Below are positions 1,747 to 63,561 of a stretch of 64,000 nucleotides of DNA, piece by piece (position 1 is the first letter of the stretch; each line of letters starts with the position of its first letter). Location of the stretch: positions 43,913 to 107,912 of the forward strand of contig CAVVMJ010000010.1 of the NCBI GenBank assembly GCA_963749445.1. Direction: 5' to 3'. The position numbers were made by a program, and so were the translations under genes. This DNA comes from an uncultured bacterium (GTDB taxonomy: Bacteria > Patescibacteriota > Doudnabacteria > UBA920). Under the pieces are notes generated by a model. That model did not search any database. It saw only the letters and a program-made list of their open reading frames with translations, and was not told the DNA's origin.

Positions 1747-4700
1747 TTATCTTCCAACCAATTTCAGAAGCGTTTTGCGCTTTTTTACCACCGCGAACGC
1801 GCCGACCATCAATCCGGCAAAAACAAAAGCGTTGGTATCCGCGCCGGTCTTGGGGGCCACAAGCGCTCCCAAAACCTGCGGCGTGTTGATGTTAATCGTT
1901 ATCGCGTTGCCGTAAGTGTTGGTCATAACGTAATGCAGATTGCTGGCCAAAAAGTACTTAATGCGCACGCGGAACGATTTGCTCACGCTGCCGCCGGCCG
2001 ACACAGTAATGGGCGGATAGTTGATGACATTGCCGGAAAGCGTGCCGCCGCCGTTGTCACTGATGTCCGCGTAAGGCAGAACCTGGGACAAATCATCCGT
2101 GACCACAAAGTTGGTGGCCGGCGAATTGCCGTTATTGGTTACCGTCAAAGTGTAAGTAATATAGTCTTCTTTGGAAGCCGGCTGTGTGGTAGCGTCAACA
2201 TTTTTGGTATCGTTCCAGGCTTTTTTGGCGTATATCAAATTAACATTGCCGCCGAGCACGTTGCCGTTGCCGTTAACGAAGACCCACGCGTCATCCTGCA
2301 CATTCGGCACGCTGTCGCCGCGGGCGCTGGCCGTGTTTTCAATGCTGGTGCCGCTGCCGGCCACAACCTGGGCCTGGAAAGTCGCGGTAACGCTCTGACC
2401 CGTGGAAAGCGAGCCCAAATTCAGGCTGTTGCCATACCAGTTGCTGCCGGAATTATAACCGTTGTTGTAATTATTATTGTTGTAATAACCGCCGCTGACC
2501 TGCGTGCTGCCGGAAATCCATTGCAGGCCGCTTACGCCCGCGTCGGTCAAAACCACATTATTGACGCTGGCGTTGCCCGTGTTGGTCACGGTAATTTGGA
2601 ACTGTACGGTATCATTCACGTTGGCGCTTACGGTTTTTTGGAACGAGCCGCCCGCCGTAATATTCCTGACCATTTTTTGGATGCCCAACTGCACGTACTG
2701 GTTATACGGTACCGGGTTATTATAGTAGTAAGGATTACTGTTGGACGACGCGTAGTAATAATAGGTGTTGGTCGTATTAGTTACGTTGTGGGAATCCGTA
2801 GTATTGGTTGTGGTATTGGTTACATTGTGGGAGTCTGTGGTATTCGTAATGTTATGCGAATCGGTGCTGTAATTTATATTATGCGAATCCGAGGTGTTGA
2901 TAATATTATTGCAGGAATTGTTTATGCAGGTATTGATGTTGTTTGTATTGCCGCCGTTGTTGTTATTTGAAGCCTGCAAAGTTATGGCGATAGTAGAAAG
3001 CAGCTGGTTGCAGCTTGCATCATACATCTTAAATACATAACTGCCGCCGGCCTGCAAATCGGAAACCGTTTGCTGGCCGTTGGCACCGCCGCTGGCAAAA
3101 GCCAGTTCCGCGGAAGAGCCGGGGTTGATGCGGGTTATGCGGATTTGGTTGGTGCCCGATGAAGCCCAGCTTATGGTTGAGCTGTAAGCGCTCCCGTTAA
3201 TCAGCAAAGCAGGCGCGGAATAGTTTAAGGTTGCGCCGGTATTGGAGGTACAAACCTGCGGCTGCTGCGAGACATGGACGCTGCAGTTAGCAGATTGGCT
3301 GCCGCTGGTCACGGTTACTGTTTTGGTGCCGATTGAAGTGTAAGTGACTCCGCTGAGCGTATTGCCCAAGGCCGTGCCGTAATTGGCGCCGGGATCGGAC
3401 CAGTTATAACTGCCGTTGCCGCCGGTAGCGGTAAAGTTTACGGCTTGATTGGTTTGGACGCTGGTCGGGTTGGCAAAGCAGGTTAAAGTTTGCGGCTGCT
3501 GGATGACGATGTTAACAACCGGACAACTCACGCCGTTGACTGTGGTTATGCCGCTGGTTACGCCGGCATTAAAGCGGGTAAGAAAAGTCGTGCCCTGGCC
3601 GGCAAACGGCACGGCGCTTTGCGCCGACCAAGTGTAGGTCTGGCTGGAAACAGGGTTGCTAATAGCGTAAGAGACCTGGTCAGACGGCGCATTGCTGCTG
3701 CCGTTTACTGTGGAAGGGGAAGTTAACTGGCAAATCGGCTGATTATTAACAGGAGCAGAACATTTAGCCGAAGCCTGGGCGCTGGCATTGGCCTGGGCCT
3801 GAGCCTGGGCTTGCTGCTGGGCCTGGCTTTGCGCCTTGTTTTGCGCGTCGGCTTGGCTGACGTTGCTGGTGGCTGTGGCGCTGGCCGAAGCCGAGGCCGA
3901 AGCCGAGGCAAACGAGCCGTCAGGGCAGGAAGCGCTGGCCGAAGCCGTGGCGCTGGCCGTGGCAGTTGCCGTAAACGTTCCGGGCTGAACCTGGATATTA
4001 ATAGTCACTATCGGACAGCTCACACCGTTAACGGTAACCGTTCCGGTAGATACACCGGCGTTAAAGCGGGTAAGAAAAGTCGTACCCTGGCCGGCAAACG
4101 GCACGGCGCTTTGCGCCGACCAAGTGTAGGTCTGGCTGGAAACAGGGTTGCTAATAGCGTAAGAGACCTGGTCAGACGGCGCATTGCTGCTGCCGTTTAC
4201 TGTGGAAGGGGAAGTCAACTGGCAAATCGGCTGATTAGCCGGAGCCTGGTTAACCAAAACCGAACAATTGGCGCGCTGGCCGTCAATGCTGCTGACGCTG
4301 GCGGTCTGCGTGCCAACGACACTGTAGTTAACGGTATAACTGGTATAATCCGCCGAAGCGTTCGCCGAAGAAGCGTTGCTGGTAGACCAGCCATAAGCGC
4401 GGCTGGTATCGCCGCCACTGGCGGTAAATACAACCGGTTGACCAAGAGTAATCGAGGCAACGTTGGCGCTGCAGGTTAAAGTCGGAAACTGAGTAGGAGT
4501 GCTACCGCAGCTCAAACTCGGCACAGGCACGTATTTATCAATTTGCGGATAACCATCCGCGGTTAAATAGAAATGTACGGTTTTACCGGGAGTCAACCAC
4601 GGGGCGTCTTGTCCTCCGAAGGGGCTGTTGGCAGCCGCTGCAAATAAACTAGGCTGGCCGGTGGAAGTATTAACTACATAGACTTTAACATTGTTTAAAT

Positions 4701-6642
4701 TGGAAGATGTCCAAGTCACGGTGCCGTCATACAAACATTGATTATAAAGCTGGTTGCCTACCTGGACGTTCAAAGTGGCACTACCGGCCGGAGGAGTGGG
4801 CGTACTGCCGCAGCTCAAAGCGGGCACAGGGACATACTTGTCGATTTGCGGATAATTATCGGCAGTCAAGTAAAAATGGACGCTGGTGCCCGGGGTCAAC
4901 CACGGCGCATCCTGGCTGCCACTTACAGCCGCGGCAAACAAACTCGGCTGGCCGGTTGAAGTATTAACCACGTAAACTTTAACATTGTTTAAATTAGAGG
5001 AAGACCAGGTGACAGTGCCATCATATAAACACTGGTTAGCAACCTGGCTGTTAACCTGAACATTTAACGTAGCGGTGCCGGCCGGAGGAGTGGGCGTACT
5101 GCCGCAGCTCAAAGCGGGCACATTGACGTATTTATCAATTTGCGGATAGTTGTCCGCGGTTAAGTAAAAGTGGACAGACGTGCCCGGAGTAAGCCACGGA
5201 GCATCGGAATTCCCCGAAACGGCGGCGCCGACTAAGCTGGGCTGGCCGGTGGAAGTGTTAACCACGTAGACTTTAACATTGTTTAAATTGGAAGATATCC
5301 AAGTCACGGTGCCGTCATATAAACACTGACCGGAAACCTGTCCGTTAAGATTAACATCCAAAGTAGCTGTGCCGGCCGGAGGGGTAGGCGTACTGCCGCA
5401 GCTCAAAGCAGGCACGCTGACATACTTGTCAATTTGCGGGTAACCATCCGCAGTTAAGTAGAAATGGGTGCTGGTGCCGGGAGTGAGCCACGGCGCATCC
5501 TGGCTGCCACTTACAGCCGCGGCAAACAAACTCGGCTGGCCGGTGGAAGTGTTAACCGCGTAAATTTTAACATTATTTAAATTAGAGGAAGACCATGTGA
5601 CAGTACCATCACCCAAACACTGGCCACTAACCTGGCCGTTGTAGCTTACATCCAAAGTGGCGGTGCCGGCCGGAGGAGTAGGCGTACTGCCGCAGCTCAA
5701 AGCAGGCACGCTGACATACTTGTCAATCTGCGGATAACCATCGGCGGTTAAATAAAAATGGGTGGATGTGCCGGGAGTGAGCCACGGGACATCTGCGTTG
5801 CCGCTTGTAGCGGCGCCAACCAAACCAGGCTGGCCGGTGGAAGTGTTAACCGCGTAAACTTTTACATTATCTAAACCTGAAGAAGTCCATGTTACAGTAC
5901 CATCGCCCAAACACTGGCCACTAACCTGGCCGTTATAGCTTACGTCCAAAGTGGCGGTGCCGGCCGGAGGGGTGGGCTGGGTTTGGCCGGTAACGGTAAC
6001 GGTAAAATAAATCAGTCTGATATAACCAAAACACGCCGGCTGGTCAGGCAAAGAAGCCGAAGAGTTTACAAAATTCAAGCTGCCCTGCCCAATGGGATCC
6101 ATATTCGGATCGCCGGTTCTCGCGCGCCATTGCTGGCCGCTGGCCGAAAGCGTTGTGCCGGAAAGCGTATTAATGTACATCTGGCCGTTTAAGGAATTGG
6201 AAGTGTTGTTAGCCGTAACCGAGGCGGAAATCATGTGACTGTCCGATGTGTTACTGTCAACCGTGGCGCTGACCTGTTCGCCGGTAGCCGCGGGGCCGCC
6301 CACGACCGCGCCGTTGTGCACATATAAAACAAATTCCACCTGGTCGCCGGGCTGGGCGCTAATCATATTATTTTCCGTATCGCCCTGCCAATCGCCGACA
6401 GCTTGCCCGTTGCGCACAATCTGGGCGCGCATAAACGGGGCGTCATTACAGCCGCCGCCGGTATGGGAAATTGAGTAAGGATTTAAAATCGGCGTGCTAA
6501 AAGTCGGGGTGCAGTCGGTTTCCGCGTGCAAAGAATTAATAACCCGCGGAGCCGCGGCCAAAACCGTCAAAGATACCGCAAAAAAACTCACCGCTAAAAC
6601 TGCGCCGACCTTGAAATTTAAAACCTGAGTATATTTTTTCAT
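1747..6642 (-). CDS. giant secreted tandem-repeat cell-surface protein (1631 aa) with sortase-type sorting signal
   Basis: N-terminal signal peptide with hydrophobic core. Five 98-aa (294-nt) tandem repeats. A duplicated roughly 90-aa module, Ser/Ala and Asn/Thr low-complexity tracts, and DUF11-like TVTNNGN segments. C-terminus APKTGAD, then a hydrophobic stretch, then KKRK. Confidence 0.75.
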   Translation of the reverse strand: MKKYTQVLNFKVGAVLAVSFFAVSLTVLAAAPRVINSLHAETDCTPTFSTPILNPYSISHTGGGCNDAPFMRAQIVRNGQAVGDWQGDTENNMISAQPGDQVEFVLYVHNGAVVGGPAATGEQVSATVDSNTSDSHMISASVTANNTSNSLNGQMYINTLSGTTLSASGQQWRARTGDPNMDPIGQGSLNFVNSSASLPDQPACFGYIRLIYFTVTVTGQTQPTPPAGTATLDVSYNGQVSGQCLGDGTVTWTSSGLDNVKVYAVNTSTGQPGLVGAATSGNADVPWLTPGTSTHFYLTADGYPQIDKYVSVPALSCGSTPTPPAGTATLDVSYNGQVSGQCLGDGTVTWSSSNLNNVKIYAVNTSTGQPSLFAAAVSGSQDAPWLTPGTSTHFYLTADGYPQIDKYVSVPALSCGSTPTPPAGTATLDVNLNGQVSGQCLYDGTVTWISSNLNNVKVYVVNTSTGQPSLVGAAVSGNSDAPWLTPGTSVHFYLTADNYPQIDKYVNVPALSCGSTPTPPAGTATLNVQVNSQVANQCLYDGTVTWSSSNLNNVKVYVVNTSTGQPSLFAAAVSGSQDAPWLTPGTSVHFYLTADNYPQIDKYVPVPALSCGSTPTPPAGSATLNVQVGNQLYNQCLYDGTVTWTSSNLNNVKVYVVNTSTGQPSLFAAAANSPFGGQDAPWLTPGKTVHFYLTADGYPQIDKYVPVPSLSCGSTPTQFPTLTCSANVASITLGQPVVFTASGGDTSRAYGWSTSNASSANASADYTSYTVNYSVVGTQTASVSSIDGQRANCSVLVNQAPANQPICQLTSPSTVNGSSNAPSDQVSYAISNPVSSQTYTWSAQSAVPFAGQGTTFLTRFNAGVSTGTVTVNGVSCPIVTINIQVQPGTFTATATASATASASASCPDGSFASASASASASATATSNVSQADAQNKAQSQAQQQAQAQAQANASAQASAKCSAPVNNQPICQLTSPSTVNGSSNAPSDQVSYAISNPVSSQTYTWSAQSAVPFAGQGTTFLTRFNAGVTSGITTVNGVSCPVVNIVIQQPQTLTCFANPTSVQTNQAVNFTATGGNGSYNWSDPGANYGTALGNTLSGVTYTSIGTKTVTVTSGSQSANCSVHVSQQPQVCTSNTGATLNYSAPALLINGSAYSSTISWASSGTNQIRITRINPGSSAELAFASGGANGQQTVSDLQAGGSYVFKMYDASCNQLLSTIAITLQASNNNNGGNTNNINTCINNSCNNIINTSDSHNINYSTDSHNITNTTDSHNVTNTTTNTTDSHNVTNTTNTYYYYASSNSNPYYYNNPVPYNQYVQLGIQKMVRNITAGGSFQKTVSANVNDTVQFQITVTNTGNASVNNVVLTDAGVSGLQWISGSTQVSGGYYNNNNYNNGYNSGSNWYGNSLNLGSLSTGQSVTATFQAQVVAGSGTSIENTASARGDSVPNVQDDAWVFVNGNGNVLGGNVNLIYAKKAWNDTKNVDATTQPASKEDYITYTLTVTNNGNSPATNFVVTDDLSQVLPYADISDNGGGTLSGNVINYPPITVSAGGSVSKSFRVRIKYFLASNLHYVMTNTYGNAITININTPQVLGALVAPKTGADTNAFVFAGLMVGAFAVVKKRKTLLKLVGR
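3470..4235 (-). repeat. duplicated roughly 270-nt module (two copies about 490 nt apart) flanking a Ser/Ala/Gln low-complexity tract
   Basis: aagt(t/c)aactggcaaatcggctgatt at about 3721 and 4212. The protein segment APANQPICQLTSPSTVNGSSNAPSDQVSYAISNPVSSQTYTWSAQSAVPFAGQGTTFLTRFNAGV occurs twice. Confidence 0.8.
4497..6003 (-). repeat. five tandem 294-nt (98-aa) repeats inside the surface protein gene
   Basis: Near-identical DNA blocks starting at about 4500, 4801, 5097, 5391 and 5688 (cgtactgccgcagctcaaagc...). The protein repeats begin TPTPPAGTATL and end PALSCGS. Confidence 0.85.
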
Positions 6643-23871: not shown

Positions 23872-24000
23872 TTACGGCCTTCTCCCCTTTTGAGGGGAGA
23901 TGTCGCGAATGCAGCTGAGCGACAGAGAGGTTGCAATCGCACAAGGATACAACCTCTCCCCTGCCCCTCTCCTCAAAAGGAGAGGGGGCTCCGCGAAATC
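23872..24000. repeat. variant copy of palindromic repeat family F1 in the ybaK-scpA intergenic region
   Basis: CTCCCCTTTTGAGGGGAG hairpin plus ACAACCTCTCCCCTGCCCCTCTCCTCAAAAGGAGAGGGGGCTCCGCG. Shares modules with the copy at 62129-62175. Confidence 0.7.
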
Positions 24001-37056: not shown

Positions 37057-38421
37057 TCAGAATGACGCCCTTGATAAATAATCTCCGATAATTTGCCTGG
37101 TTTCGTCCAGGTTTTTTGTTTGCATTAGCTTGGCGCGTAGCTCGTGCGCGCCGGCAAAACCGGAACAATAAGCTTTAAAATGCTTGCGCATAATCGCGAA
37201 TGATTTATTTTTGCCAAGTTCCCGGTCAAACAGTTCCGCGTGTTCCAGCATGACGCGGAGGCGTTCTTTTATGTCCGTCTGGTAATTATCATCGCGAAAT
37301 ACCCAAGGGTGCCCAAACGCTCCCCTGCCGATCATTACGCCGTCGCAACCCGTCTCCGCGACGCGCGCCAGCCCTTCCTCGCGCGACTTAATGTCGCCAT
37401 TCCCGATAATCAAAGTCTTAGCCCTTAGCCCTAAAACCTTAGCCCTGATATTCACCGCCTCGGCAATCTTGTCCCAATGCGCCGGAACTTTGGACATTTC
37501 CTGTTTGGTACGGCCGTGCAAAATCAGCGCCGCGATGTCCATCGCGAGCAAATTTTCCACCCATTTTTCCATCTCCGATGTTTTGCTGTAGCCGATGCGG
37601 GTTTTGACTGATATCGGCACCAAAACCACCTCCCCCCTCGGCTTCGCTCGGGGTACTCCTCCTTGAAAAGGAGGAGAGCTCCGCACTTTATCCGATAACG
37701 GGGACAATTGCGGAGCCTCCCCTCCTGTTAAGGAGGGGTGTCCCGCGGAGCGGGACGGGGTGGTTGGAGATTGCACGGATTGTCCCGACAGCCACCCTTC
37801 TTTTGTCGCGCTGATGATTTCCCAGGCGAGTTTCGGTTCGCGGATAAGCGCCGCGCAAGTCCCGCCCGCAATTTCTTTTTGCTGCGGACAGCCCATATTA
37901 ATGTCAATGCCGTCAAATTTTAAATCGCGGATGATTCGCGCGGCCTCTTTAAATTTTTCCGGGTCGCGCCCCCACAACTGCGCCACAATCGGTCTCTGCG
38001 CTTCGCTGTATTTTAAATCGATGGATAAATTTTTCCTGCCTTCCGGATGCGTCAACCCGTCCACGTTTATAAATTCCGTGAACGTAACAAAATTATTACC
38101 ACCTCCCCCGCCTTCGGCGGGTACTCCTCCTATGAGAGGAGGAGAGCTCCGCAAAATATTCGAGGATAACCGCGGAGCGCTCCCCTCCTTTTTTGAGGCC
38201 TTGATGAAGGCAAAGGAGGGGTGGCTCGCGCAGCGAGACGGGGTGGTACTTCCACTTTTAACTTTTAATTTTCCACTTTTAACTTGCCCGCCATAGCGGG
38301 CCACCATCTCCCGAAACGCAAAGTCAGTGACTTGCTCCATCGGAGCCAAGCAAAATATCGGTTTCTTTAAATTATTCCAAAAATTATTCATTGCGCAAGC
38401 AAACGACCTCTCTGTCGCCAA
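37057..38421 (-). CDS. tRNA-dihydrouridine synthase (Dus family; specific paralog not determined) carrying three in-frame repeat-element insertions
   Basis: CLAPMEQVTDFAFREMV, DINMGCPQQKEIAGGTCAAL and IGNGDI motifs. At 454 aa versus about 330 expected. Inserts correspond to family F1 copies at 38098-38240 and 37625-37766 and a short TTAGCCCT repeat at 37416-37451. Confidence 0.8.
   Translation of the reverse strand: MATERSFACAMNNFWNNLKKPIFCLAPMEQVTDFAFREMVARYGGQVKSGKLKVKSGSTTPSRCASHPSFAFIKASKKEGSAPRLSSNILRSSPPLIGGVPAEGGGGGNNFVTFTEFINVDGLTHPEGRKNLSIDLKYSEAQRPIVAQLWGRDPEKFKEAARIIRDLKFDGIDINMGCPQQKEIAGGTCAALIREPKLAWEIISATKEGWLSGQSVQSPTTPSRSAGHPSLTGGEAPQLSPLSDKVRSSPPFQGGVPRAKPRGEVVLVPISVKTRIGYSKTSEMEKWVENLLAMDIAALILHGRTKQEMSKVPAHWDKIAEAVNIRAKVLGLRAKTLIIGNGDIKSREEGLARVAETGCDGVMIGRGAFGHPWVFRDDNYQTDIKERLRVMLEHAELFDRELGKNKSFAIMRKHFKAYCSGFAGAHELRAKLMQTKNLDETRQIIGDYLSRASF
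37625..37766. repeat. palindromic repeat family F1, copy A (module order 1 then 2), inside dus
   Basis: CCACCTCCCCCC..GGGGTACTCCTCCttgaaaaGGAGGAGAGCTCCGC ... GCGGAGCCTCCCCTCCtgttaaGGAGGGGTG..GGGACGGGGTGG. Confidence 0.85.
38098..38285. repeat. palindromic repeat family F1, copy B, plus adjacent tandem TTCCACTTTTAACTT x2, inside dus
   Basis: Same module structure. Module 2 is nearly identical to the copies at 62499 and 63405. Confidence 0.85.
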
Positions 38422-38768
38422 AAACGATATTATTCTAAAAATTTTGGCGACATCTCCCCTCGCCAGGGGAGAATAATAATGAAGAATCTATCGCGAAATC
38501 CGTCACCTCTTCCATCGGCGCGAGGCAAAATATCGGTTTTTTTAGTTGTTGCCAAAAGTTGACAAACATATATTTATAACATAGCTGCCATCCCGAGGAG
38601 TGCAGCCGACGAGGGATCTTTCACATAGTTTAAATCAAAAACCGCGCTGATGCAATCGGTGCGGTTTTTGAACGTTTGATGATAATCGATGATTATTTAG
38701 GGGATCCTTCGGCCGCCTGTATAATTCTGATGACGGCCTCGGGATGAATTTGAAATAACAATGCTGTG

Positions 38769-40995: not shown

Positions 40996-41069
40996 TGGGG
41001 TGTAGCCAAGCGGTAAGGCAAGCGGCTCTGAACCGCTCATCCCAGGTTCGAATCCTGGCACCCCAGCCA
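40996..41069 (+). tRNA. tRNA-Gln (anticodon CTG) with encoded CCA
   Basis: TGGGGTGTAGCCAAGCGGTAAGGCAAGCGGCTCTGAACCGCTCATCCCAGGTTCGAATCCTGGCACCCCAGCCA; the U1:A72 pair and overall sequence are close to E. coli tRNA-Gln. Confidence 0.85.
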
Positions 41070-48171: not shown

Positions 48172-48732
48172 TCAAAGCCCATTTTTTGCTTCTAAAACGT
48201 TTAACTGTAATGATTTTTTTATCTCTTCCAGCGCTATTTGTTTGTTTTCTAAACTTTTAACCTCTGTCACTTTGTTTTTCTGTCGGCCCACTTCGCGGTA
48301 AAAGGCCGTGCATTTTTCCAAAAAGCCCGGCGGCAAATTATCAGCGTCAAGATATTTACCGGCAAGTTCGTCGTCCAGAGGCACAACAATAATTTTATCA
48401 TCCACTTCGCCGCGGTCAATGGTTTTTAACATACCGACCGCTTTGCACTTCACGAACTCGCCCATCTTAATCGGCGCGGATGACAAAACTATGGCGTCCA
48501 AAGGGTCACCGTCGCCGCCCAAAGTGTGCGGAATGAATCCGTAATTAAAAGGAAAAACCAAATCCTTAAATACAAAATCCAATTTTAAACTGTCTGAGGC
48601 TTCGTCGTACTCGTACTTTAAATTACTCCCTTGCGGAATTTCCACAATGACGTTAAAAGCCTCCAAACTGCCAAAAGGAATTTGTTCCAGATTAATTTTG
48701 TCATTTTTATTATTTTTACTCATTTTTGTCAT
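48172..48732 (-). CDS. ppa: soluble inorganic pyrophosphatase (family I)
   Basis: Core region FNVIVEIPQGSNLKYEYD...LDFVFKDLVFPFNYGFIPHTLGGDGDPLDAIVL. Confidence 0.85.
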   Translation of the reverse strand: MTKMSKNNKNDKINLEQIPFGSLEAFNVIVEIPQGSNLKYEYDEASDSLKLDFVFKDLVFPFNYGFIPHTLGGDGDPLDAIVLSSAPIKMGEFVKCKAVGMLKTIDRGEVDDKIIVVPLDDELAGKYLDADNLPPGFLEKCTAFYREVGRQKNKVTEVKSLENKQIALEEIKKSLQLNVLEAKNGL

Positions 48733-50138
48733 TACCCAATTATTCCGCCGCCAACGCACACTTTACCCTTATATAATACCAAACTCTGCCCCGAAGCGAC
48801 AGCTTTTTGGGGATCTTTAAAGGTTACGCGATAAAGGCCATTTTTAATTTTGTCGATAGTTAGCGGCACCAGTTGGCCCTGGTGGCGGTAGCGGCCAACT
48901 AGGGCTAAGGGTCTAGGGCTAAGAGCTAAGTCGCTTTTGCTTAGCCCTATAACCTTAGCGCTTAGCCCTGTTTGCCCAATCCAGTTCACGCTATAAATTT
49001 GTACTTCTTTCGTCATCAGATTTTCGTCATCCGGATTATTTGTAACGTACAACGCATTGCTCTTTAAATCTTTTCTTACCACATAATACGGCCCGCCGGC
49101 GCCAACATGAATTCCCTGCCGCTGGCCGATGGTATAGTTAAATAATCCCTGATGTTGGCCGATTATGTTTCCTGAAATTGCAAGTGCAGCCGACTTGTCC
49201 GCCGAAGCTTCAGCGAAGGTGGAAGCAATCCCGTCTTTTATGGGATTGCCACGTCGCCCCTCCGGTGCAGTCGGGGCTCCTCGCAATTTCAAATCAGAAG
49301 AAACAAGAACAATCGGACCCGGTTTTGGCTTTAACCTCTGTTCCAAAAAATCTTTTAATCTTATCTTGCCGACAAAGCACAGTCCCATACTCTCTTTTTT
49401 CTCGGCGTTGGGCAGATCGATTTTCCGCGCCAGCGCGCGCACCGCCGATTTTTTCATCCCGCCGATGGGAAACAACAAATGCGGCAGCTGGTGGGTTTTG
49501 ATGTTATAGATAAAGTAGGTCTGGTCTTTAAATTCGTCGATACTGCGCATAAGACCATACCTAACTCCAACCTCCTCCCCCGCCTGACGGCGGGTACTCC
49601 TCCTTAAAAAGGAGGAGAGCTCCGCGGAGCCGCCAAGAACATCTGCAGAGCCTCCCCTCCTGCCAAGGAGGGGCGTCTGCGAAGCAGACGGGGTGGTATG
49701 AATCTGCGCGTAATGGCCGGTGGCCAAATAATCAAATCCGTTTTGCATTGCCCAGTTATACAAAAGTTTGAACTTGATTTCCTTATTGCACATCACGTCC
49801 GGGTTGGGGGTGAGGCCTTTTTTGTATTGGTCAAAAAAATAACGCATCACGTTTTTTTGGTACTGTTTTTCAAAATCCAAAGTATGCAGCGGAATTCGCA
49901 AAAACGCGGCCACGCGCAGCGCGTCCTGGCGATCTATTAGCCACGGACATTCGTTTTTTAAAAGCCCGGCCGTGGAAGACCAATTCTTCATAAACGCGGC
50001 CTCAACTTCGTAGCCCTGCTTAATCAGCAAATACGCCGAAACCGCGGAATCAATCCCGCCTGACAGGGCGATTAAAACTTTTCGTTTCTTAACTCCCCCT
50101 CTTTTGAAAAGAGAGGGCTGGGGGAAGTTCTTTTTCAT
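48732..50138 (-). CDS. mnmA: tRNA-specific 2-thiouridylase MnmA carrying in-frame repeat-element insertions
   Basis: PP-loop LIALSGGIDSAV; KDQTYF; C-terminal domains. The F1 copy at 49566-49700 encodes a 46-aa insert. A TTAGCCCT repeat at 48901-48972 encodes ALSPRPLAL. A mini-hairpin sits at 50091-50130 near the N-terminus. Confidence 0.85.
   Translation of the reverse strand: MKKNFPQPSLFKRGGVKKRKVLIALSGGIDSAVSAYLLIKQGYEVEAAFMKNWSSTAGLLKNECPWLIDRQDALRVAAFLRIPLHTLDFEKQYQKNVMRYFFDQYKKGLTPNPDVMCNKEIKFKLLYNWAMQNGFDYLATGHYAQIHTTPSASQTPLLGRRGGSADVLGGSAELSSFLRRSTRRQAGEEVGVRYGLMRSIDEFKDQTYFIYNIKTHQLPHLLFPIGGMKKSAVRALARKIDLPNAEKKESMGLCFVGKIRLKDFLEQRLKPKPGPIVLVSSDLKLRGAPTAPEGRRGNPIKDGIASTFAEASADKSAALAISGNIIGQHQGLFNYTIGQRQGIHVGAGGPYYVVRKDLKSNALYVTNNPDDENLMTKEVQIYSVNWIGQTGLSAKVIGLSKSDLALSPRPLALVGRYRHQGQLVPLTIDKIKNGLYRVTFKDPQKAVASGQSLVLYKGKVCVGGGIIG
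49566..49700. repeat. palindromic repeat family F1, copy C, inside mnmA
   Basis: CCTCCTCCCCCGCC..GGGTACTCCTCCttaaaaaGGAGGAGAGCTCCGCGGAGC ... CTCCCCTCCtgccaaGGAGGGG..GACGGGGTGG. Confidence 0.85.
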
Positions 50139-51788: not shown

Positions 51789-51818
51789 ATCTTGATGTTA
51801 GTTGTTAATCGTAAATTG

Positions 51819-52784
51819 TTAATTGTTTCCGCCAAAGGCGGATCCGCCTCCGGCGGAAATTGTGGATACCGCCGTGCTCGTGCCCAAAACTGTCTGACCC
51901 GAATTCAGCCACGCCAGGGCTTTGGCCTCTTGCGCCAGGCCGGCCAGAAGTTTAGTTTCCGCAAACGCCGTGTACAAATGCTGTTCGCCCAAAACCACAA
52001 TGGCCAGTTCCTGGCCGCCGGAGTAAACCAGCGAAGCAAAATTGTAACCGGATTGATCAAGGTAGCCGGTTTTGGCGCCGATGATCTGAACATCGCCGTC
52101 CGACAGCAGCTTGTCAGTATTCTTAATAGTCTGATTATAGCGGGGATTGTTGGTGGAGCGCAACGCGTAAGATTGCAGCACCGCAATGTTGGCCAAATAA
52201 GAATTTTCAAACGCGGCTTTGACAATAGCGGCGTAATCGGCCGCGGTAATGGTGTTGCCGGGATCCATACCCGTGGGTTCGTTAAAATGGGTTTGCGTGG
52301 CTCCCAAAACAGCCGCTTTTTCGTTCATGCGCGCTGCAAATTCTTCGGCAGACAAACCGGTGCTGCGTGCCAAAGCCGCGGCCGCGTTATTGGCCGAAGG
52401 CATCAACGCGGCGTGGAATAAGCCGTCCACCGTAAATTTGACGCCGGGCTTAACTTTAATACAAGCGCCGCCGCTGCTGCATCCGCCCGCGACTTGGTCG
52501 GCTGCGGTCATGGCCACGGTTTTTTTAAGGTTCGGGTTGGTATCCAAAACCACTAAAGCCGTGACCAGCTTGGTCAGACTGGCCGGCACCCAAGGTTCGC
52601 CGGAATTTTTGTTGACCAACACCTGGCCGCTTTGCGCGTCAACCACCACGTAACTCTGCGCGTTAAACCCGGCCATGTCCGCCAGCTCGTTAATGCTGGT
52701 CGGCAGCTGCAAGGCCAAGGTGAAAGTTGGAAACGTTAACAGTAAAACCGCAACTCCTGCAATTATTTTCGTTTTTTTGATCAT
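51819..52784 (-). CDS. D-alanyl-D-alanine carboxypeptidase (S11, PBP5-like)
   Basis: Signal peptide; SLTK (SxxK), SAN (SxN) and KTG motifs in order. Confidence 0.8.
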   Translation of the reverse strand: MIKKTKIIAGVAVLLLTFPTFTLALQLPTSINELADMAGFNAQSYVVVDAQSGQVLVNKNSGEPWVPASLTKLVTALVVLDTNPNLKKTVAMTAADQVAGGCSSGGACIKVKPGVKFTVDGLFHAALMPSANNAAAALARSTGLSAEEFAARMNEKAAVLGATQTHFNEPTGMDPGNTITAADYAAIVKAAFENSYLANIAVLQSYALRSTNNPRYNQTIKNTDKLLSDGDVQIIGAKTGYLDQSGYNFASLVYSGGQELAIVVLGEQHLYTAFAETKLLAGLAQEAKALAWLNSGQTVLGTSTAVSTISAGGGSAFGGNN

Positions 52785-52851
52785 TATTTTGTATTAAGAA
52801 GTACGGCAACTTTCTCCCTTAACTCTTAACTCCTAATTCTTAACTCTTGTC

Positions 52852-53154
52852 TTACTCTTTCATCATATTGCCGAACTTGCTTTGCAGCATTTTTTTATGA
52901 TGCTTAAACAAATCCTCCAGGGCCGAGCGAATGTGCCGCGCGATTTCGCTTTTGTCGCCGGCAATGTCCGGGCTGACTTCCACGCTTTTAACGTTTTGGT
53001 TGCCGTCAATGATTAAAACGATTTTGCCGCCGGACGATTTGCCGCTCACGGTTTCCACTGCCAACAGGCTTTCCATCTGCTTGGCCTGCTTGCGCATTTC
53101 GTTAATATCCTTTAACTTGTCAAAAATTCCCATAAAATAATTTTTTAATGACAA
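52852..53154 (-). CDS. ybaB: nucleoid-associated protein YbaB/EbfC
   Basis: 100 aa; central SSGGKIVLIIDGNQNVKSVEVSP pattern. Confidence 0.8.
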   Translation of the reverse strand: MSLKNYFMGIFDKLKDINEMRKQAKQMESLLAVETVSGKSSGGKIVLIIDGNQNVKSVEVSPDIAGDKSEIARHIRSALEDLFKHHKKMLQSKFGNMMKE

Positions 53155-56398: not shown

Positions 56399-57691
56399 TC
56401 AACTTGATTTTAAATATAAAATCAAGTTTTCTTTATTTACTATTGATTCTACCGACGTTGCCAAGCTTTTGACTTTAAACTTTTCACTTTTAACTTCCTC
56501 TTCGCCGACCACCAGCACGTACGGGATTTTTTCCCTGTCCGCGGTTTTGACCTGGGCGGAAACTTTTTTATCGGTAAGGTCAACGGCCACATTCACCCCT
56601 TGCTTTCTAATGTAGTCTGCCAATTTATTGGCCTCTTCGATATATCCTTCAAGATGACAAATGTACAGTTTTACCGGCGGATGATATTCGGGCAACAAAT
56701 CATAAGTCTCCAAAAAATCCCGCGTGGTCACGTCGCCCCAACCAAAGCCGATGCCCGAAACTTTTTCCACGCCAAAAATCCCGACCAAATCATCGTACCT
56801 CCCGCCGCCGAACAACGCGCGGGGGTTTTTGGGATTGGTATCGTACATTTCAAACACCGTGCCGGTGTAATAGTCAAAGCCGCGGGTTAAAGGAAAGTGA
56901 AATTTGATATTTTTTATTCCCTTATCATTTAATATTTTAAATATTCCGATGAACGATTTTACTTCGGGATTATGTCCAAACTCTTTTACCATGTATTCCA
57001 TTGTCAAAGTTTGTATCAGCTTATCAAATTCAAACGCTTTCTCTCTTGACCCAACTATTTCCGACAGGGCATCAACAAACTTATTAGGATCCAATTTATC
57101 TGATTTATCCAACAATTTCATAAACTTATGTTCTTGTACTTCTGACCATTTGTGTAATTTTGCAAACTCTTTTAAAATTTTGCGGCTGTTTATTCTTATC
57201 TCAAAATTTTCATCCTTTGCCCCAAACGCCTTCATAATATCATAGGCGAGCGATATTATTTCCACATCAGCCTCAATTGAATCCACGCCGAACAAATCGC
57301 AGTTCAGCTGCCAGTGTTCGCGCAAACGGCCGCGCTGGGGGCGTTCGTAACGAAATAAGTTCGGGATAGAATACCAGCGCAAAGGAAAAGTTAATTCTTT
57401 GCGCTTTTGCGCCACCATACGAGCCACGGTTGGCGTCATCTCGGGACGAATGGTTACATCGCGACCGCCGCGATCAGTAAAAGAGTAAGTTTGCTCGTTG
57501 ACGATTTCCTCGCCGGTTTTAGCACGGTACAAATCCGTCTCTTCCAAAATAGACGCGCCGTATTCCAAATAACCGTAGCTTTCCGCCACTTTTTTCCATA
57601 TTGAAAAAATGTAATTTTGCACGAACTGGTCCTGCGGATAAAAATCCCTCGTGCCTTTGTAGGGCTCCAAACTTAACTTTTTTTGTGTCAT
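56399..57691 (-). CDS. hisS: histidyl-tRNA synthetase
   Basis: Class II motifs, RYERPQRGRLREHWQ and anticodon-binding C-terminus. Confidence 0.9.
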   Translation of the reverse strand: MTQKKLSLEPYKGTRDFYPQDQFVQNYIFSIWKKVAESYGYLEYGASILEETDLYRAKTGEEIVNEQTYSFTDRGGRDVTIRPEMTPTVARMVAQKRKELTFPLRWYSIPNLFRYERPQRGRLREHWQLNCDLFGVDSIEADVEIISLAYDIMKAFGAKDENFEIRINSRKILKEFAKLHKWSEVQEHKFMKLLDKSDKLDPNKFVDALSEIVGSREKAFEFDKLIQTLTMEYMVKEFGHNPEVKSFIGIFKILNDKGIKNIKFHFPLTRGFDYYTGTVFEMYDTNPKNPRALFGGGRYDDLVGIFGVEKVSGIGFGWGDVTTRDFLETYDLLPEYHPPVKLYICHLEGYIEEANKLADYIRKQGVNVAVDLTDKKVSAQVKTADREKIPYVLVVGEEEVKSEKFKVKSLATSVESIVNKENLILYLKSS

Positions 57692-57772: not shown

Positions 57773-57930
57773 ACTGCGGAGCATTCCCCTCCTATTCCCA
57801 GAATATCATCAGAATATAGGAGGGGTGTCGCCCGCAGGGTGACAGGGTGGTAAATACAGGTTGCCGATGTCTACCACCTCCCCCTGCTAGTGCAGGGTAC
57901 TCCTCCTGTTCCAGGAGGAGAGGCTCCGCA
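57773..57930. repeat. palindromic repeat family F1, copy D (module order 2 then 1), intergenic
   Basis: GCGGAGCATTCCCCTCC..GGAGGGGTG..GGGTGGTA - spacer - TACCACCTCCCCC..GGGTACTCCTCCtgttccaGGAGGAGAGGCTCCGC. Confidence 0.85.
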
Positions 57931-57956: not shown

Positions 57957-58208
57957 CTACTGCGCCGTCACATCTTTGCAGAAAAACTTCTGCGCGCCCA
58001 ACGCCAGCCAGGCAACCGCAAGAATCCCTGTGGAAGCCACACTCAGCCACAAATGCAGGGTGAAATACACAACCGTGTAAATAAGCAAAACACCACCGGT
58101 TAAAACGCTGGTGGAAACAGGCGGTTTGTCTTTGCCAAACAGCGAAGGAAACAAGGCAAAAATAAAAACCCACGAACCCACGGACAACACAACATCTTGC
58201 CAACTCAT
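57957..58208 (-). CDS. small membrane protein (hypothetical)
   Basis: 83 aa, three TM segments. Confidence 0.35.
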   Translation of the reverse strand: MSWQDVVLSVGSWVFIFALFPSLFGKDKPPVSTSVLTGGVLLIYTVVYFTLHLWLSVASTGILAVAWLALGAQKFFCKDVTAQ

Positions 58209-61543: not shown

Positions 61544-62491
61544 ATGAGCTTATTAATCGTCGGTAGCGTGGCGTTTGACAGCATTGAGACGCCGTTTGGG
61601 AAAATTAAAAAAGCTTTGGGCGGCAGCGCCAGCTATTTTTCTTTGGCTGCTTCGTTTTTTGCGCGGCCGAGCGTAGTCGGCGTGGTCGGAAAGGATTTTG
61701 CCGATATTTATCGGCAACCGCTAAAAAAGAAAAACATTGACCTCTCGGGCCTGGAGCAAACAGCGGGAAAGACTTTTGCCTGGGGCGGCAAGTACAGTTT
61801 TGATTTGAACAACCGCGAAACCCTGTTTACCCATTTAAACGTTTTTGAAAATTTCAAGCCAAAACTTTCGGCCGGCCACAAAAACGCATCTTATATTTTT
61901 TTGGGCAACATCCACCCGGCGCTGCAGCTTGAAGTTTTATCGCAAATAAAAAAACCAAAACTCGTAGGGCTGGACACGATGAATTTATGGATAGAAAAAA
62001 CGCCCAAGGAACTGGCTAAAATTTTAAAACTGGTTGATGTTTTTGTGATTAACGATTCCGAGGCGCGGGAACTGTCGGGGGAACATAATTTGGTGAAAGC
62101 CGCAAAGAAAATCATCGCGATGATGGACACAACCTCTCCCCAGCCCTCCCCTCAAAAGGGGAGGGAGACTGCAACGCTGATTATCAAGCGCGGGGAATAT
62201 GGGCTGCTGCTGTTTAAAGGCCGCGATGTGTTCCATCTGCCGGGATATCCCTTAGAAGACGTGATTGACCCCACCGGCGCGGGCGACAGCTTTGCCGGAG
62301 GGCTGATGGGCTTTTTAGCCAAAACTGAAGACCTAAGTTGGGGCAATTTAAAACGAGCCTGCGTGGCAGGCTCGGTCATGGCCAGTTTTTGCTGCGAGCG
62401 GCTGGGTACCCAAAGGTTGCAGGAAATATCGCCGGGTGATATAAAACGGCGGTTCAAAGAATTTAAACGGTTGACGCACTTTGATAACTAG
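61544..62491 (+). CDS. PfkB-family carbohydrate kinase with in-frame mini-repeat insertion
   Basis: DPTGAGDSFAGGLMGFL ATP-binding motif; N-terminal GG sugar-binding region. Insert 62129-62175 encodes TTSPQPSPQKGRETA. Confidence 0.75.
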   Translation: MSLLIVGSVAFDSIETPFGKIKKALGGSASYFSLAASFFARPSVVGVVGKDFADIYRQPLKKKNIDLSGLEQTAGKTFAWGGKYSFDLNNRETLFTHLNVFENFKPKLSAGHKNASYIFLGNIHPALQLEVLSQIKKPKLVGLDTMNLWIEKTPKELAKILKLVDVFVINDSEARELSGEHNLVKAAKKIIAMMDTTSPQPSPQKGRETATLIIKRGEYGLLLFKGRDVFHLPGYPLEDVIDPTGAGDSFAGGLMGFLAKTEDLSWGNLKRACVAGSVMASFCCERLGTQRLQEISPGDIKRRFKEFKRLTHFDN

Positions 62492-62498
62492 CAAACCC

Positions 62499-62647
62499 GC
62501 GGAGCACTCCCCTCCTTTTTTGAGGTCTTGATGAGCACAAAGGAGGGGTGGCTCGCGCAGCGAGACGGGGTGGTATTTATCGTTGATTCTACCACCTCCC
62601 CCCGCTTCGCGGGGTACTCCTCCTTTTCAGGAGGAGAGGCTCCGCAA
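62499..62647. repeat. palindromic repeat family F1, copy E (module order 2 then 1)
   Basis: Module 2 is identical over about 78 nt to copy F (63405-63480). Confidence 0.85.
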
Positions 62648-62993
62648 TTATTCTATGACAAAGGGCGGCCAATGGCCGCCCTATACGTCACCGGCTATTA
62701 GTTTCTCCGTTCAGCCAGCTATCCATCGTGGTGGGGTTAAAATTATAGGTTCGGCCGCCAAGGTGGCCGGACACGGGTACGCGGAACAGCCAGAGTACAA
62801 AGGCGGCTAAAATCAGCAGCATCAAAATTACGCTGATAATGGGGACTGGTGCATATATCTGTTGGTGGATAAATCAAAATCGCCTGTAGCTACAGGCGAT
62901 TTTGTGTATTTTTTCGTTACTAATTTCGTTTATGAAATCAGTTTTGCTTTTATGCTAATCAGTTAATCATCAAGCGCCGGTAAACATTAACGT

Positions 62994-63362
62994 TTATCGA
63001 TAATTTTGCCGTTTATCGATTAACTTTACCAACAGGTTAGTGCAGCAGTCCCTGATAATGCGGGCAAAAATTCCGGCGCGCGACAGAATGGACAGGCCCA
63101 AAAAAATTATCAGCACCGGCCAAACGTGGGAGAAAAACTGTCCCCACTCAAAACCGGTCACGTAGCCCAATGAGCGGGCCAAAAATGCCAGGCCGATCAT
63201 AATAATTATCATTCCCCAAAACAAGTGCCCGAACCAATGACCGTGGTAATGATCGTGGCGATGGTAATGCAAATCTTTAAATTTATCCCTTTGCTGCTGC
63301 TCGGGCGTGGGTTGGGTCGGCGTGGGCTGATGAATATTTGGATTCGTTTGATTGTTTTCCAT
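62994..63362 (-). CDS. small membrane protein with His-rich N-terminus (paralog of 63562..63906)
   Basis: HYHRHDHYHGHW His cluster; TM segments; shared WPVLIIFLGLSILSR motif. Confidence 0.4.
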   Translation of the reverse strand: MENNQTNPNIHQPTPTQPTPEQQQRDKFKDLHYHRHDHYHGHWFGHLFWGMIIIMIGLAFLARSLGYVTGFEWGQFFSHVWPVLIIFLGLSILSRAGIFARIIRDCCTNLLVKLIDKRQNYR

Positions 63363-63404
63363 AAGATTATAAATAGTTTTTATACTACGGTTTTAAGGAA
63401 TATC

Positions 63405-63558
63405 GCGGAGCACTCCCCTCCTTTTTTGAGGTCTTGATGAGCACAAAGGAGGGGTGGCTCGCGCAGCGAGACGGGGTGGTATTATCATAGCGAGTATTTA
63501 TACCACCTCCCCCCGACAAGTCGGGGTACTCCTCCTATGATAGGAGGAGAGGCTCCGC
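63405..63558. repeat. palindromic repeat family F1, copy F (module order 2 then 1)
   Basis: CGCGGAGCACTCCCCTCCttttttgagg..GGAGGGGTGGCTCGCGCAGCGAGACGGGGTGGTA - spacer - TACCACCTCCCCCCGAC..GGGGTACTCCTCCtatgataGGAGGAGAGGCTCCGCGG. Confidence 0.85.
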
Positions 63559-63561
63559 GGA

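Follow-up and report, generated by a model that had tools for sequence, protein, structure and literature searches.

We consider it rather likely that F1, the palindromic repeat flagged at this locus, is a MITE-like, gene-less derivative of a tiny DNA element that carries a DUF559 gene; the parent element is probably mobile. Since the same two-hairpin modules bracket DUF559 genes in relatives, and on a contig with a protein of the source genome (L197), the F1 copies are best read as gene-less derivatives. The full element would likely span ~ 0.5-0.6 kb and consist of module 2 (GCGGAGC, CCCCTCC hairpin, variable hairpin, GGGGTGGT with an optional TGGAGT), the DUF559 gene, and module 1 (ACCACC with an optional preceding AACTCCA, variable hairpin, CTCCTCC hairpin, GCTCCGC). 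The flagged locus (copy D) is the gene-less counterpart of this module 2-DUF559-module 1 arrangement.

Composite copies of one inverted unit

In the 64,000-nt stretch of DNA that we analyzed (the window), the following copies were located.

37625..37764 (+), copy A: order 1→2; module 1 at 37625-37684, 25-nt spacer, module 2 at 37710-37764; inside dus, site 2
38098..38247 (+), copy B: order 1→2; module 1 at 38098-38152, 19-nt spacer, module 2 at 38172-38247; inside dus, site 1
49563..49697 (+), copy C: order 1→2; AACTCCA arm extension, module 1 at 49570-49625, 19-nt spacer, module 2 at 49645-49697; inside mnmA
57776..57929 (+), copy D, the flagged locus: order 2→1; module 2 at 57776-57851, 21-nt spacer, module 1 at 57873-57929; intergenic
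62499..62645 (+), copy E: order 2→1; module 2 at 62499-62574, 16-nt spacer, module 1 at 62591-62645; intergenic
63405..63558 (+), copy F: order 2→1; module 2 at 63405-63480, 21-nt spacer, module 1 at 63502-63558; intergenic
23874..23994 (+), diverged 2→1 copy: arms AACCTCTCCCC / GAGAGGTTG; intergenic, with a ybaK-like ORF on one side and an scpA-like gene on the other
62131..62165 (+), lone module of a sister subfamily: AACCTCTCCCCAGCCCTCCCCT-loop-AGGGGAGGG; in frame in the pfkB-family kinase ORF 61544..62491(+)

All six full copies described in the original prediction were present, in the orders given there and within a few bases of the positions reported, which supports its view of a dispersed, strongly structured palindromic repeat with modules in both orders. 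The covariance-model check that it had suggested was carried out with a model of one module (R1), run over the window with filters off. The scan recovered exactly 12 strong modules (52-78 bits, E from 1e-8 to 1e-13), corresponding to the six composite copies; those of copy D scored 52.7 and 71.3 bits. The core GGTACTCCTCC-N5-8-GGAGGAGAG occurred 6 times in the window, against 0.00 expected from 100 shuffles. Copy D lies between the ORF 57957..58208(-) and hisS, 56399..57691(-). Copy E begins 8 nt past the stop codon of the pfkB-family kinase gene, and copy F is flanked by two LiaF-TM-like genes on the minus strand. The polarity was identical in all window copies.

Among the variant or partial copies proposed earlier, the one at 23872-24000 was retained as the diverged copy, whose halves scored 33.2 bits (23949-23994(+), E 1e-4) and 18.4 bits (23874-23931(-), E ~ 0.09). 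The stretches 38441-38475, 40548-40585, 50091-50130 and 62129-62175 were not significant under R1 (E > 4), and the assignment of the first three hairpins to the family is without statistical support. The last one nevertheless contains, at 62131-62165, the module type that brackets DUF559 genes in two other loci (L184 and L189).

Module 2 is approximately the reverse complement of module 1, and each copy is therefore an inverted pair of one ~ 56-nt unit. The unit comprises two hairpins, and both modules are inverted repeats of it. The earlier description of two permuted modules thus holds for the two orders and fails for the two separate modules: the "permutation" is that of inward- versus outward-facing inverted pairs of a single unit. 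The two orders are also equal to two linearisations of one circle or tandem array. Three features had escaped the first reading, namely the reverse complementarity of the modules, the single polarity, and the location of copies A, B and C inside long ORFs (dus and mnmA).

As had been predicted, the fold closes in either order, and the same six helices form in both. In the 1→2 order the junction is closed by ACCACC/GGTGGT, in the 2→1 order by GCGGAGC/GCTCCGC. Each copy folds into a closed six-helix junction, with RNA folding energies of -73 to -90 kcal/mol. Folding as single-stranded DNA gave -44 and -47 kcal/mol (z = -7.0 and -7.3), with -44.1 kcal/mol and z = -7.0 for copy E. Fold strength was equal on both strands. 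In an alignment of 119 modules from around DUF559 genes, which was fitted to the model and therefore leans toward structure, 95.8% of the cells were paired versus 79.8% in shuffles, and the covariation score was 0.297 versus at most 0.064 for slid controls. In the variable hairpin, each of the six pairs had changes on both sides, and G·U pairs occupied only ~ 7 of 1389 cells in the same 119 modules.

The near-identity of module 2 noted in the original prediction was also confirmed. Copies E and F agreed at 76/76 positions and copy B matched them at 71/76, while the module 1 partners differed. Either recent copying or gene conversion could account for the identity of E and F in module 2.

Insertions within dus and mnmA

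Order and location coincided in the window: all three 1→2 copies are intragenic and all three 2→1 copies are intergenic. The two host genes are the following.

37057..38421 (-), dus: tRNA-dihydrouridine synthase (PF01207, Pfam E 1.1e-57; orthologue alignment A5), host of copies A and B
48732..50138 (-), mnmA: tRNA 2-thiouridylase (Pfam; orthologue alignment A1), host of copy C

The PF01207 match in dus is broken into two stretches. Copy A is open in the host frame on the minus strand, where it reads ...TTPSRSAGHPSLTGGEAPQLSPLSDKVRSSPPFQGGVPRAKPRGEVV..., and the insertion is missing from most Dus orthologues in alignment A5. Copy B likewise keeps the minus-strand frame of dus open. Its site is shared only by P0129 among the aligned Dus orthologues, and in that protein the first part of the insert is in another frame. 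Copy C follows the ATGHYAxI motif of mnmA and is open in the host frame, again on the minus strand. The orthologous mnmA segments measure 201, 204, 204, 204 and 183 nt, all multiples of 3, and the changes in their hairpins are compensatory. Besides copy C, mnmA contains further repeat-derived in-frame insertions.

Taken over both genes, the 1→2 insertions are missing from many orthologues and the indels preserve the frame. The copies within dus and mnmA appear to be translated, judging from their reading frames. In this small-genome host, copies of F1 lie in frame inside essential genes.

Six independent 1→2 sites were found in long ORFs, and in 6/6 the host gene runs in the DUF559 sense; an additional 1→2 copy, in L034, lies outside any long ORF. 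No open frame of at least 120 aa extends across D, E or F. The diverged copy at 23874-23994 sits upstream of the scpA-like start, and the gene-bearing 2→1 copies of L100 and L197 are placed between called genes.

The DUF559 nuclease gene associated with the modules

The original prediction had suggested a RAYT or another IS200/IS605-type Y1 transposase as the mobilizing partner. The associated gene turned out to be a DUF559 gene located between the modules. When ORFs near the module core were clustered all against all, without bias, a single family recurred, PF04480 (DUF559, E 1e-30). It was present in 14 of the at least 112 genome loci, in 12 of which it lies between or beside modules; among these listed loci, found by the module pattern, the gene adjoins a module in only ~ 13%. 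In the reciprocal test, 53 of the 66 metagenome loci picked by the protein alone had inverted-repeat flanks scoring above all 20 shuffles.

The full form has the layout module 2-DUF559-module 1, with a DUF559 gene of ~ 117 aa. In a locus from Candidatus Doudnabacteria (L100), module 2 spans 2152-2206, the DUF559 gene 2212..2577(-), and module 1 2577-2634. The layout is the same in L117 and L197, so the terminal inverted repeats of the gene-less copies recur around a gene-carrying parent. All three loci belong to the subfamily of the window copies. L100 and L197 have the GCGGAGC/GCTCCGC outer stem of the window copies, and in relatives with this stem the DUF559 gene occupies exactly the position of the 16-21 nt spacer of D, E and F. 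L100 also holds a 1→2 copy in frame in another ORF. The arms vary among DUF559 loci (ACCACC type and AACCCCTCCCC type), and the up- and downstream modules of each gene share their type. In L066, the module 2-ORF-module 1 unit forms a tandem repeat, and in L121, L129 and L133 complete composite palindromes stand on both sides of the ORF.

The 64-kb window contains no DUF559 gene. The DUF559 proteins P0256, P0262 and P0270 lie on a contig of 372,259 nt, the length also of the contig with the window's own MnmA (P0001) and Dus (P0121). Going by this match in length, the source contig apparently encodes three intact DUF559 genes outside the window. L197 is a Logan contig with the exact P0270 protein, and it does not overlap the window.

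The DUF559 profile matched PDB entries 3HRL (E 6.5e-29) and 3R3P (E 2.5e-5), the latter being the nuclease domain of the homing endonuclease I-Bth0305I (PMC3239194). The residues D57, E68, D70 and H74 are invariant in the family and intact in P0256, P0262 and P0270. By predicted fold and motif, with a Vsr-type nuclease fold and Asp/Glu/His catalytic residues, the associated protein is a Vsr-like PD-(D/E)xK endonuclease.

F1 is not private to the source genome. Module cores were found in at least 112 genome loci from Bacteroidota, many Patescibacteria, Verrucomicrobiota and other phyla, as well as in viral contigs; the scan needed an exact hairpin-2 core, and the counts of loci are thus lower bounds. 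Module-flanked DUF559 genes of this clade also occur in several phyla. A blastn search of plasmids with copy E gave no match. The phage collection held just three distant DUF559 relatives, with no link to known phage mini-elements.

How such an element might spread can be outlined as follows. Nicking or cutting by the Vsr-like nuclease would occur in the modules, or in the empty loop that separates them, and would lead to copying by break repair in a homing-like manner. Loss of the ORF would then leave gene-less copies. Both orders may arise from one intermediate, circular or tandemly repeated, that is linearised in two ways: it would yield the 1→2 order if opened at the ACCACC/GGTGGT side and the 2→1 order if opened at the GCGGAGC/GCTCCGC side. 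In a compact genome, intragenic insertions would survive only with the frame kept open, and the 1→2 form would be stop-free. The inserted peptide might be a tolerated surface loop, as in the palindromic elements (RPEs) of Rickettsia. PD-(D/E)xK or Vsr-like nucleases are, however, not known to us to transpose alone, which counts against their bringing gene-less copies to new sites such as dus or mnmA unaided.

The DUF559 association could equally reflect the homing of an endonuclease gene into a pre-existing repeat. A broader alternative built on this idea, which we regard as rather unlikely but worth weighing, is that the modules are an independent REP-like repeat spread by other means, and that DUF559 is a separate, free-standing homing endonuclease targeting the GGGGTGGT...ACCACC loop of 2→1 pairs and spreading by break repair with the modules as homology arms. 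Such an origin would agree with the absence of the gene from most module copies, with an ORF that fills exactly this loop, and with the homology of the nuclease to a proven homing endonuclease. The composites on both sides of the ORF in L121, L129 and L133 also look as if the gene had landed between or within existing repeats. The alternative, however, offers no agent for the spread of gene-less modules, including their spread into coding regions, and the clustering gave no other recurrent candidate enzyme near modules. Moreover, the presence of one arm type in the two modules of each gene, with types differing among loci, fits a co-evolving unit at least equally well.

Under the preferred reading of F1 as gene-less derivatives of a DUF559 element, a more far-reaching proposal may be put forward, tentatively. 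The DUF559 clade and its two-hairpin modules may form an undescribed class of ~ 0.5 kb mobile elements across phyla and phages, in which the substrate of the nuclease would be the element's own palindromic ends, extruded or mismatched, permuted insertions would result when a circular or concatemeric intermediate was opened at one or the other of two symmetric stems, and essential coding sequences would be colonized in frame. If true, this would link length differences in conserved CPR/Patescibacteria proteins, RPE-type intragenic palindromes and DUF559. RPE-like "selfish DNA in proteins" would for the first time have an explicit proposed driver, and DUF559, a very large Vsr-like nuclease family, would gain a biological role. 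With a ~ 117 aa nuclease and ~ 56 nt substrates, the system would be small and tractable, and it bears on the spread of palindromes and on protein tolerance.

Known systems and other explanations

No named family was found for the F1 repeat in either Rfam or the literature; a known name would have spoken against the original prediction. Literature searches (motif strings, DUF559, Vsr-like homing endonucleases with palindromes, CPR in-frame insertions, MITE with endonuclease) returned no description of the element.

The RPEs of Rickettsia are dispersed palindromes of 100-150 nt in a small genome, located between genes and in frame within conserved genes, where they are translated as an extra peptide. 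We know of no established mechanism for their spread and of no partner gene like DUF559. F1 is similar in being a small-genome palindrome, both intergenic and in frame in conserved genes, where it is absent from orthologues and apparently translated. It differs in its candidate partner DUF559, its two-hairpin modules, its two permuted orders, its cross-phylum spread and its host phylum. As the host belongs to the Patescibacteria, the likeness is an analogy and not membership, F1 being set beside the RPEs by behavior and not by consensus sequence. The original comparison with RPEs (mentioned in PMC1779305 and PMC10969869) is thus supported as regards selfish DNA behavior, and the sequence, which it took to be distinct, is not particular to this genome, with cores in at least 112 loci of several phyla.

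The EDxHD, or Vsr-like, homing endonucleases (I-Bth0305I and the "fractured gene" endonucleases) have a Vsr-like fold and an acidic/histidine motif (PMC3239194, PMC2677866). The DUF559 protein shares both, and its gene is small, selfish-looking and present in many copies. The EDxHD enzymes carry an additional N-terminal DNA-binding region; group I introns house some of them, others sit between split inteins, and phages carry free-standing ones. In contrast, no intron or intein is involved for the ~ 117-aa DUF559 nuclease, which has no other domain, lies between hairpin inverted repeats, and either stands alone or forms an in-frame fusion with host proteins.

MITEs such as Correia/NEMIS and the Coxiella QMITEs resemble F1 in that short gene-less copies with terminal inverted repeats, here AACTCCAACCACC...GGTGGTTGGAGTT, occur alongside rarer gene-carrying copies. 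ORFs are lengthened or interrupted in frame by some MITE insertions (PMC5896051, PMC10969869). F1 differs from MITEs in that its repeats hold two hairpins each and occur in circularly permuted orders. Inspection of the copy ends revealed neither a target-site duplication nor a conserved target motif, and in place of a recognized DDE, serine or Y1 transposase the parent carries a PD-(D/E)xK nuclease.

A functional structured RNA, i.e., a terminator, an mRNA stabilizer, a regulatory element or a small RNA with the six-helix junction as its fold, is improbable. The predicted folds are very stable and the covariation is strong, intergenic copies adjoin gene ends, and the inner-arm GGAGGTG of full elements lies 8-10 nt ahead of the DUF559 start codon, so that inner-arm pairing could mask the ribosome-binding site. 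Compensatory changes in the hairpins together with Watson-Crick pairing on both strands nevertheless point to a DNA palindrome and not to an RNA fold; the near-absence of G·U and the equal folding of both strands are expected of such a palindrome and unusual for a selected RNA. Furthermore, three copies lie in coding sequence and are apparently translated, and one polarity is kept although copies sit between plus- as well as minus-strand genes. Rfam returned only three tRNAs for the whole window at gathering thresholds, and only chance-level matches over 62400-63700 at E up to 10. We rejected an RNA-level function on this evidence.

Very improbable is a REP/BIME or REPIN family moved by a RAYT, an IS200/IS605-type Y1 transposase. 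REP-type repeats have a conserved GT[AG]G head, after which comes a single imperfect hairpin of 20-40 nt. The inverted pairs of F1 hairpin units, head-to-head and tail-to-tail, recall BIMEs and REPINs in both arrangements, as do the many copies and the one dedicated, single-copy-type gene, and the single strand polarity across the window could fit a single-strand mechanism. The F1 modules, however, begin with ACCACC or GCGGAGC and lack a GTAG-type 5′ head, the sole recurrent neighbor gene is DUF559 and not a Y1 transposase, and half of the copies lie within genes, whereas REPs are extragenic. As a minor point, no transposase was among the 25 of 61 Pfam families listed for the 56 window ORFs.

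Removal of the intragenic copies before the protein functions, by a new small intron, an intein-like sequence or translational bypass, is the most improbable explanation and was rejected: paired terminal arms would bring the flanking coding sequence together, and introns or inteins are the usual home of homing endonucleases (PMC3239194), but all intragenic copies are open in the host frame, the indels of five orthologues are multiples of 3 although RNA-level removal would need no frame conservation, and the frame in which the same element is read differs among orthologues. An intein was also considered for the 1283-aa protein of L079, which holds the whole unit in frame. Pfam detected only DUF559 and R-M domains there and no Hint domain, for which the flanks, module-derived peptides of ~ 17 aa, are far too short.

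F1 insertions inflate or fragment gene calls and confound orthologue alignments in metagenome-assembled genomes, and module-derived peptides give spurious protein similarity. The clustered "family" near the module core, as first recovered, was partly due to such peptides.

F1 copies and their fold

Sequence inspection of the window confirmed, in the predicted places, the six full copies of F1, the two-module palindromic repeat: A, B and C with module 1 first (1→2 order), and D, E and F in the 2→1 order. An independent repeat finder also recovered all six (families D5, D6, D7, D9, D13 and D19), and the core GGTACTCCTCC-N5-8-GGAGGAGAG occurred six times in the window versus 0.00 expected. All F1 copies had one polarity. 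R1, a covariance model of the kind called for by the original prediction, rests on an alignment (A3) of 29 single modules, taken both from the window and from close relatives. Run on the window with filters off, it returned exactly 12 strong modules (52-78 bits), six of module 1 on the plus strand and six of module 2 on the minus strand, because module 2 is approximately the reverse complement of module 1. Among the predicted variant copies, one stood as a diverged pair of modules under R1 (23874-23931 and 23949-23994), whereas four short variants had E > 4. The segment at 62131-62165, not significant under R1, had the same architecture as the modules beside the DUF559 (PF04480) endonuclease genes of loci L184 and L189.

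As predicted, both orders folded into the same six helices, the sole difference being the stem that closes the junction. As single-stranded DNA, copy E folded with -44.1 kcal/mol (z = -7.0) and the minus strand of copy A with -46.8 kcal/mol (z = -7.3). The near-identity of module 2 was borne out as well, at 76/76 positions between E and F and 71/76 for B. Despite this, the module 1 partners of B, E and F were unlike one another.

Copies within and between genes

The source names of the best protein hits place the organism in the Patescibacteria (CPR), near Candidatus Doudnabacteria. Three copies lay inside genes:

Copies A and B: inside a 454-aa minus-strand ORF, Dus tRNA-dihydrouridine synthase
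Copy C: inside a 468-aa ORF, MnmA

The host frame ran through all three without a stop codon. In the MnmA orthologue alignment (A1), the insert corresponding to copy C came after the ATGHYAxI motif. It was common to four close relatives (67-74% identical as given by the search) and missing from other orthologues, e.g. P0102, P0085, P0109 and P0010. The DNA alignment of mnmA placed all five orthologous inserts at one site, and the segments between fixed anchors measured 201, 204, 204, 204 and 183 nt, every one a multiple of 3. Their variable hairpin carried compensatory changes (TCTGC/GCAGA, TCCC/GGGA, CGCCC/GGGCG), with which the encoded peptide also changed. The Dus orthologues (A5) had two separate, differently distributed insertion sites. 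Site 1 was filled in the window protein and P0129, site 2 in P0121-P0125 and P0127, and in most orthologues both were empty. Moreover, the first part of the element was read in different frames in P0121, the window Dus (TTPSRCASHPSF), and P0129 (HHPVSLREPPLL). Since frame and distribution differ among orthologues, the inserts appear to be translated nucleic-acid elements. Judged from the orthologue sequences, they were shown to be in-frame insertions, predicted to be translated, present in some orthologues and missing from others. The MnmA and Dus comparisons argued against conserved protein modules and spliced sequences as descriptions of the inserts.

Intergenic positions were occupied by D, E and F as well as by the diverged copy, the latter upstream of an scpA-like start, with stop codons in all or most frames; no frame of at least 120 aa open across D, E or F was found. 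At 6/6 independent 1→2 sites in long ORFs of the window and related loci, the gene ran opposite to the module plus sense; another 1→2 copy (L034) lay outside any long ORF. The 1→2 form was open in the DUF559-sense frame, starting 'TTPS...', in 3/3 window copies (A, B, C), and the spacer of the 2→1 form was AT-rich. Order would track location if selection in a compact genome retained only insertions that keep the frame open. All copies within genes faced the same way with respect to the gene. The other open frame of the 1→2 form begins with a proline run, which, we speculate, host proteins may tolerate less well. No target-site duplication was seen at the F1 copies.

We also observed other lineage-specific in-frame inserts among the orthologues of MnmA (window gene at 48732-50138), at three further hot spots (N-terminal, behind GPIVL and behind HSVNW), as well as the recurrent repeat-derived peptides PPLTPPxKGGxSAVxPPLxKGRLGG and SLRGAPSASEERRGN...LAMT. 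These suggest that several further palindromic repeat families may occupy coding regions of the lineage. The 5' end of dus was duplicated (38317-38385 and 38492-38560), with a hairpin at 38441-38475 between both copies. The product of ORF 38435..38569 (minus strand), MFVNFWQQLKKPIFCLAPMEEVTDFA, repeats the N-terminus of Dus, with 75% identity at the DNA level. The duplication may be a rearrangement scar tied to hairpin insertion.

Association with DUF559 endonuclease genes

An exact-pattern scan for the module 1 core, with one genome per species, gave at least 112 loci in Bacteroides, Flavobacteriia, Chitinophagales, Saccharibacteria, Doudnabacteria, Woesebacteria, Nomurabacteria, Verrucomicrobiota, Elusimicrobiota and others. 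Among the loci listed, all conserved the ACCACCTCCCC arm upstream and the small variable hairpin, and many had module 2 directly 3' of module 1. The Bacteroides copies were in 2→1 order, with a 30-70 nt spacer within an extended GGGGTGGTAGGT/ACCTACCACC stem. Modules were also found on 40 viral contigs. One from IMG/VR (L206, 1141-1791) held a full module-DUF559-module unit, the 39 others modules without the gene. The element may travel between phyla on phages.

For the 112 loci listed, all-against-all clustering of every ORF up to 3 kb from the core gave a single recurrent family, a protein of ~115 aa that matched PF04480 DUF559 (E 1e-30) and, weakly, REase_MTES_1575. By tblastn, 14 of these 112 loci had the gene, mostly within 60 nt of a module. 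The usual layout was [module 2 - GGGGTGGT] - DUF559 - [ACCACC - module 1], with the gene running against the module sense. In the reciprocal search, a profile of 12 DUF559 sequences (A2) found at least 587 metagenome loci. In the best 80 of these, the flank upstream of the start codon held a CCCCTCC hairpin, then a variable one and GGGGTGGT; just beyond the stop codon came ACCACCCCG, one hairpin and a second of the CCCCTCC type. Of the 66 loci whose flanks were long enough, 53 had a flank-versus-flank inverted-repeat score that exceeded all 20 shuffles. These data show how the element is built and, in both search directions, its association with DUF559.

A gene-carrying relative of the window copies was arranged as follows in L100, a Doudnabacteria genome locus:

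2152-2206: module 2, starting GCGGAGC
2212..2577, minus strand: DUF559 ORF, 121 aa
2577-2634: module 1, ending GGCTTCCGC

This is the 2→1 architecture of the window, with DUF559 in the place of the 16-21 nt spacer of D, E and F; L117 had the same layout. The L100 locus also held a 1→2 copy without the gene, in frame in a membrane-protein ORF. With the L100 protein as query, 3380 relatives were found, among them P0256, P0262 and P0270 (69-74% identical), which kept all conserved acidic and histidine residues. They are encoded on a contig of 372,259 nt, exactly as long as that of the window MnmA (P0001) and Dus and apparently the same one. A Logan contig encoding exactly P0270 (L197), with no overlap with the window, read GCGGAGC - hairpin - hairpin - GGGGGGTTGGAGT|ATG...DUF559...TGA|CTCCAACCCCTCC - hairpin - hairpin - GCTCCGC.

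Among solved structures, the DUF559 profile matched 3HRL, an 'endonuclease-like protein' (E 6.5e-29), and 3R3P, a 'mobile intron protein' (E 2.5e-5). The latter shows the nuclease domain of the homing endonuclease I-Bth0305I, which is of the Vsr-like 'EDxHD' type, and Vsr nicks 5' of T:G mismatches (PMC3239194). Relatives in the clade are annotated 'very-short-patch-repair endonuclease' or 'endonuclease domain-containing protein'.

In L079 (451-4299), the whole unit lay in frame inside a 1283-aa ORF with Eco57I, N6_Mtase and TaqI_C domains, bordered by module-derived peptides. The same held for L002 (1195-4272) and apparently for L001, L083 and L105. In Bacteroidota and other genomes, we observed the unit fused in frame, at differing positions, within large type IIG restriction-modification/methylase ORFs. 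If translated, the endonuclease would form a domain within the host enzyme, with no intein involved.

Pairing, proposed spread of the unit and other repeats

On the 240 kb of DUF559 metagenome loci, R1 found 119 modules with strong covariation. Paired cells made up 95.8%, versus 79.8% in shuffles and 57-72% with slid partners, in an alignment that was fitted to the model and so biased towards structure; both the controls with slid partners and the independent mnmA comparison agreed with the covariation. Both sides had changed in 10/14 pairs, including 6/6 variable-hairpin pairs. In an RNA fold under selection, G.U pairs are usually accepted and the two strands become unequal, whereas strict Watson-Crick pairing is expected of a DNA palindrome (a cruciform, or hairpins on either strand). 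G.U occurred in only ~7/1389 cells of the 119 modules, and both strands folded about equally well. The hairpin conservation was shown to be of the palindrome type. Across phyla, the arms keep their sequence and so does the second hairpin (CCCCTCC/GGAGGGG or CTCCTCC/GGAGGAG), which suggests recognition by a protein.

We propose that the modules, or the gene-less loop, are the substrate of the nuclease, and that break repair would then copy the element in a homing-like manner. D, E and F would be remnants after ORF loss. Both orders could come from a single circle or tandem array, a - M1 - b - spacer - b' - M2 - a' - (ORF) - back to a, made linear at two different points. A cut beside the ORF would give the 1→2 form, with ends AACTCCAACCACC...GGTGGTTGGAGTT, and a cut in the b/b' spacer the 2→1 form. 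Concatemers exist, since L066 held the whole unit in a tandem array and L121, L129 and L133 had complete composites on both sides of the ORF.

The main rival is an independent repeat into which the endonuclease gene merely homes, and the present data fit either reading. At least one test contradicted each of the other explanations: an RNA function, by the pairing described here; RAYT-driven REPs, suggested in the original prediction, as the defining REP/RAYT features failed and the recurrent neighbour gene was DUF559; and intron- or intein-like removal, as the element fails the defining features of inteins and Pfam found no Hint domain in the L079 ORF.

The proposed DUF559-module unit resembles RPE in its behaviour within coding regions, MITEs in having full and miniature copies, and homing elements in its associated protein. 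Unlike classical MITEs, it showed neither target-site duplication nor a transposase. The element matched no Rfam family. A literature search of incomplete coverage did not find hairpin-flanked DUF559 elements or the motifs, and an earlier description may exist. That the unit represents a new class of very small mobile elements is a real possibility.

The window also held a second, unrelated 47-nt palindromic family, D10 (TGTCTAATAT...TTCCGGCC...ATATTAGAC), with three copies located by the repeat finder:

14609-14655: D10 copy
15179-15225: D10 copy
25968-26014: D10 copy

Two AT-rich intergenic motifs may be promoter or regulatory motifs: GATGTTAATCGTTAATTGTAAATTGTTAATCGTT (40954-40987, ending just upstream of the tRNA at 40996-41066, and 51794-51827) and CTTTTAACTTTTAATTTTCCACTTTTAACTT (38255-38285, 52823-52853 and 56466-56496). 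At 4491-5947, within the very large ORF 1750..6642 (minus strand), a 294-nt unit (98 aa) was repeated in tandem about five times, with 72-85% identity. Further repeats were a 492-nt duplication (3499-4237) and short GCNGNN-type units (3779-3964). Among the Pfam matches listed for 56 window ORFs, tRNA-synt_2, Glyco_hydro_1, CAP and NUDIX were each found in two ORFs, and a 23S rRNA intervening-sequence protein gene (PF05635) was also present.
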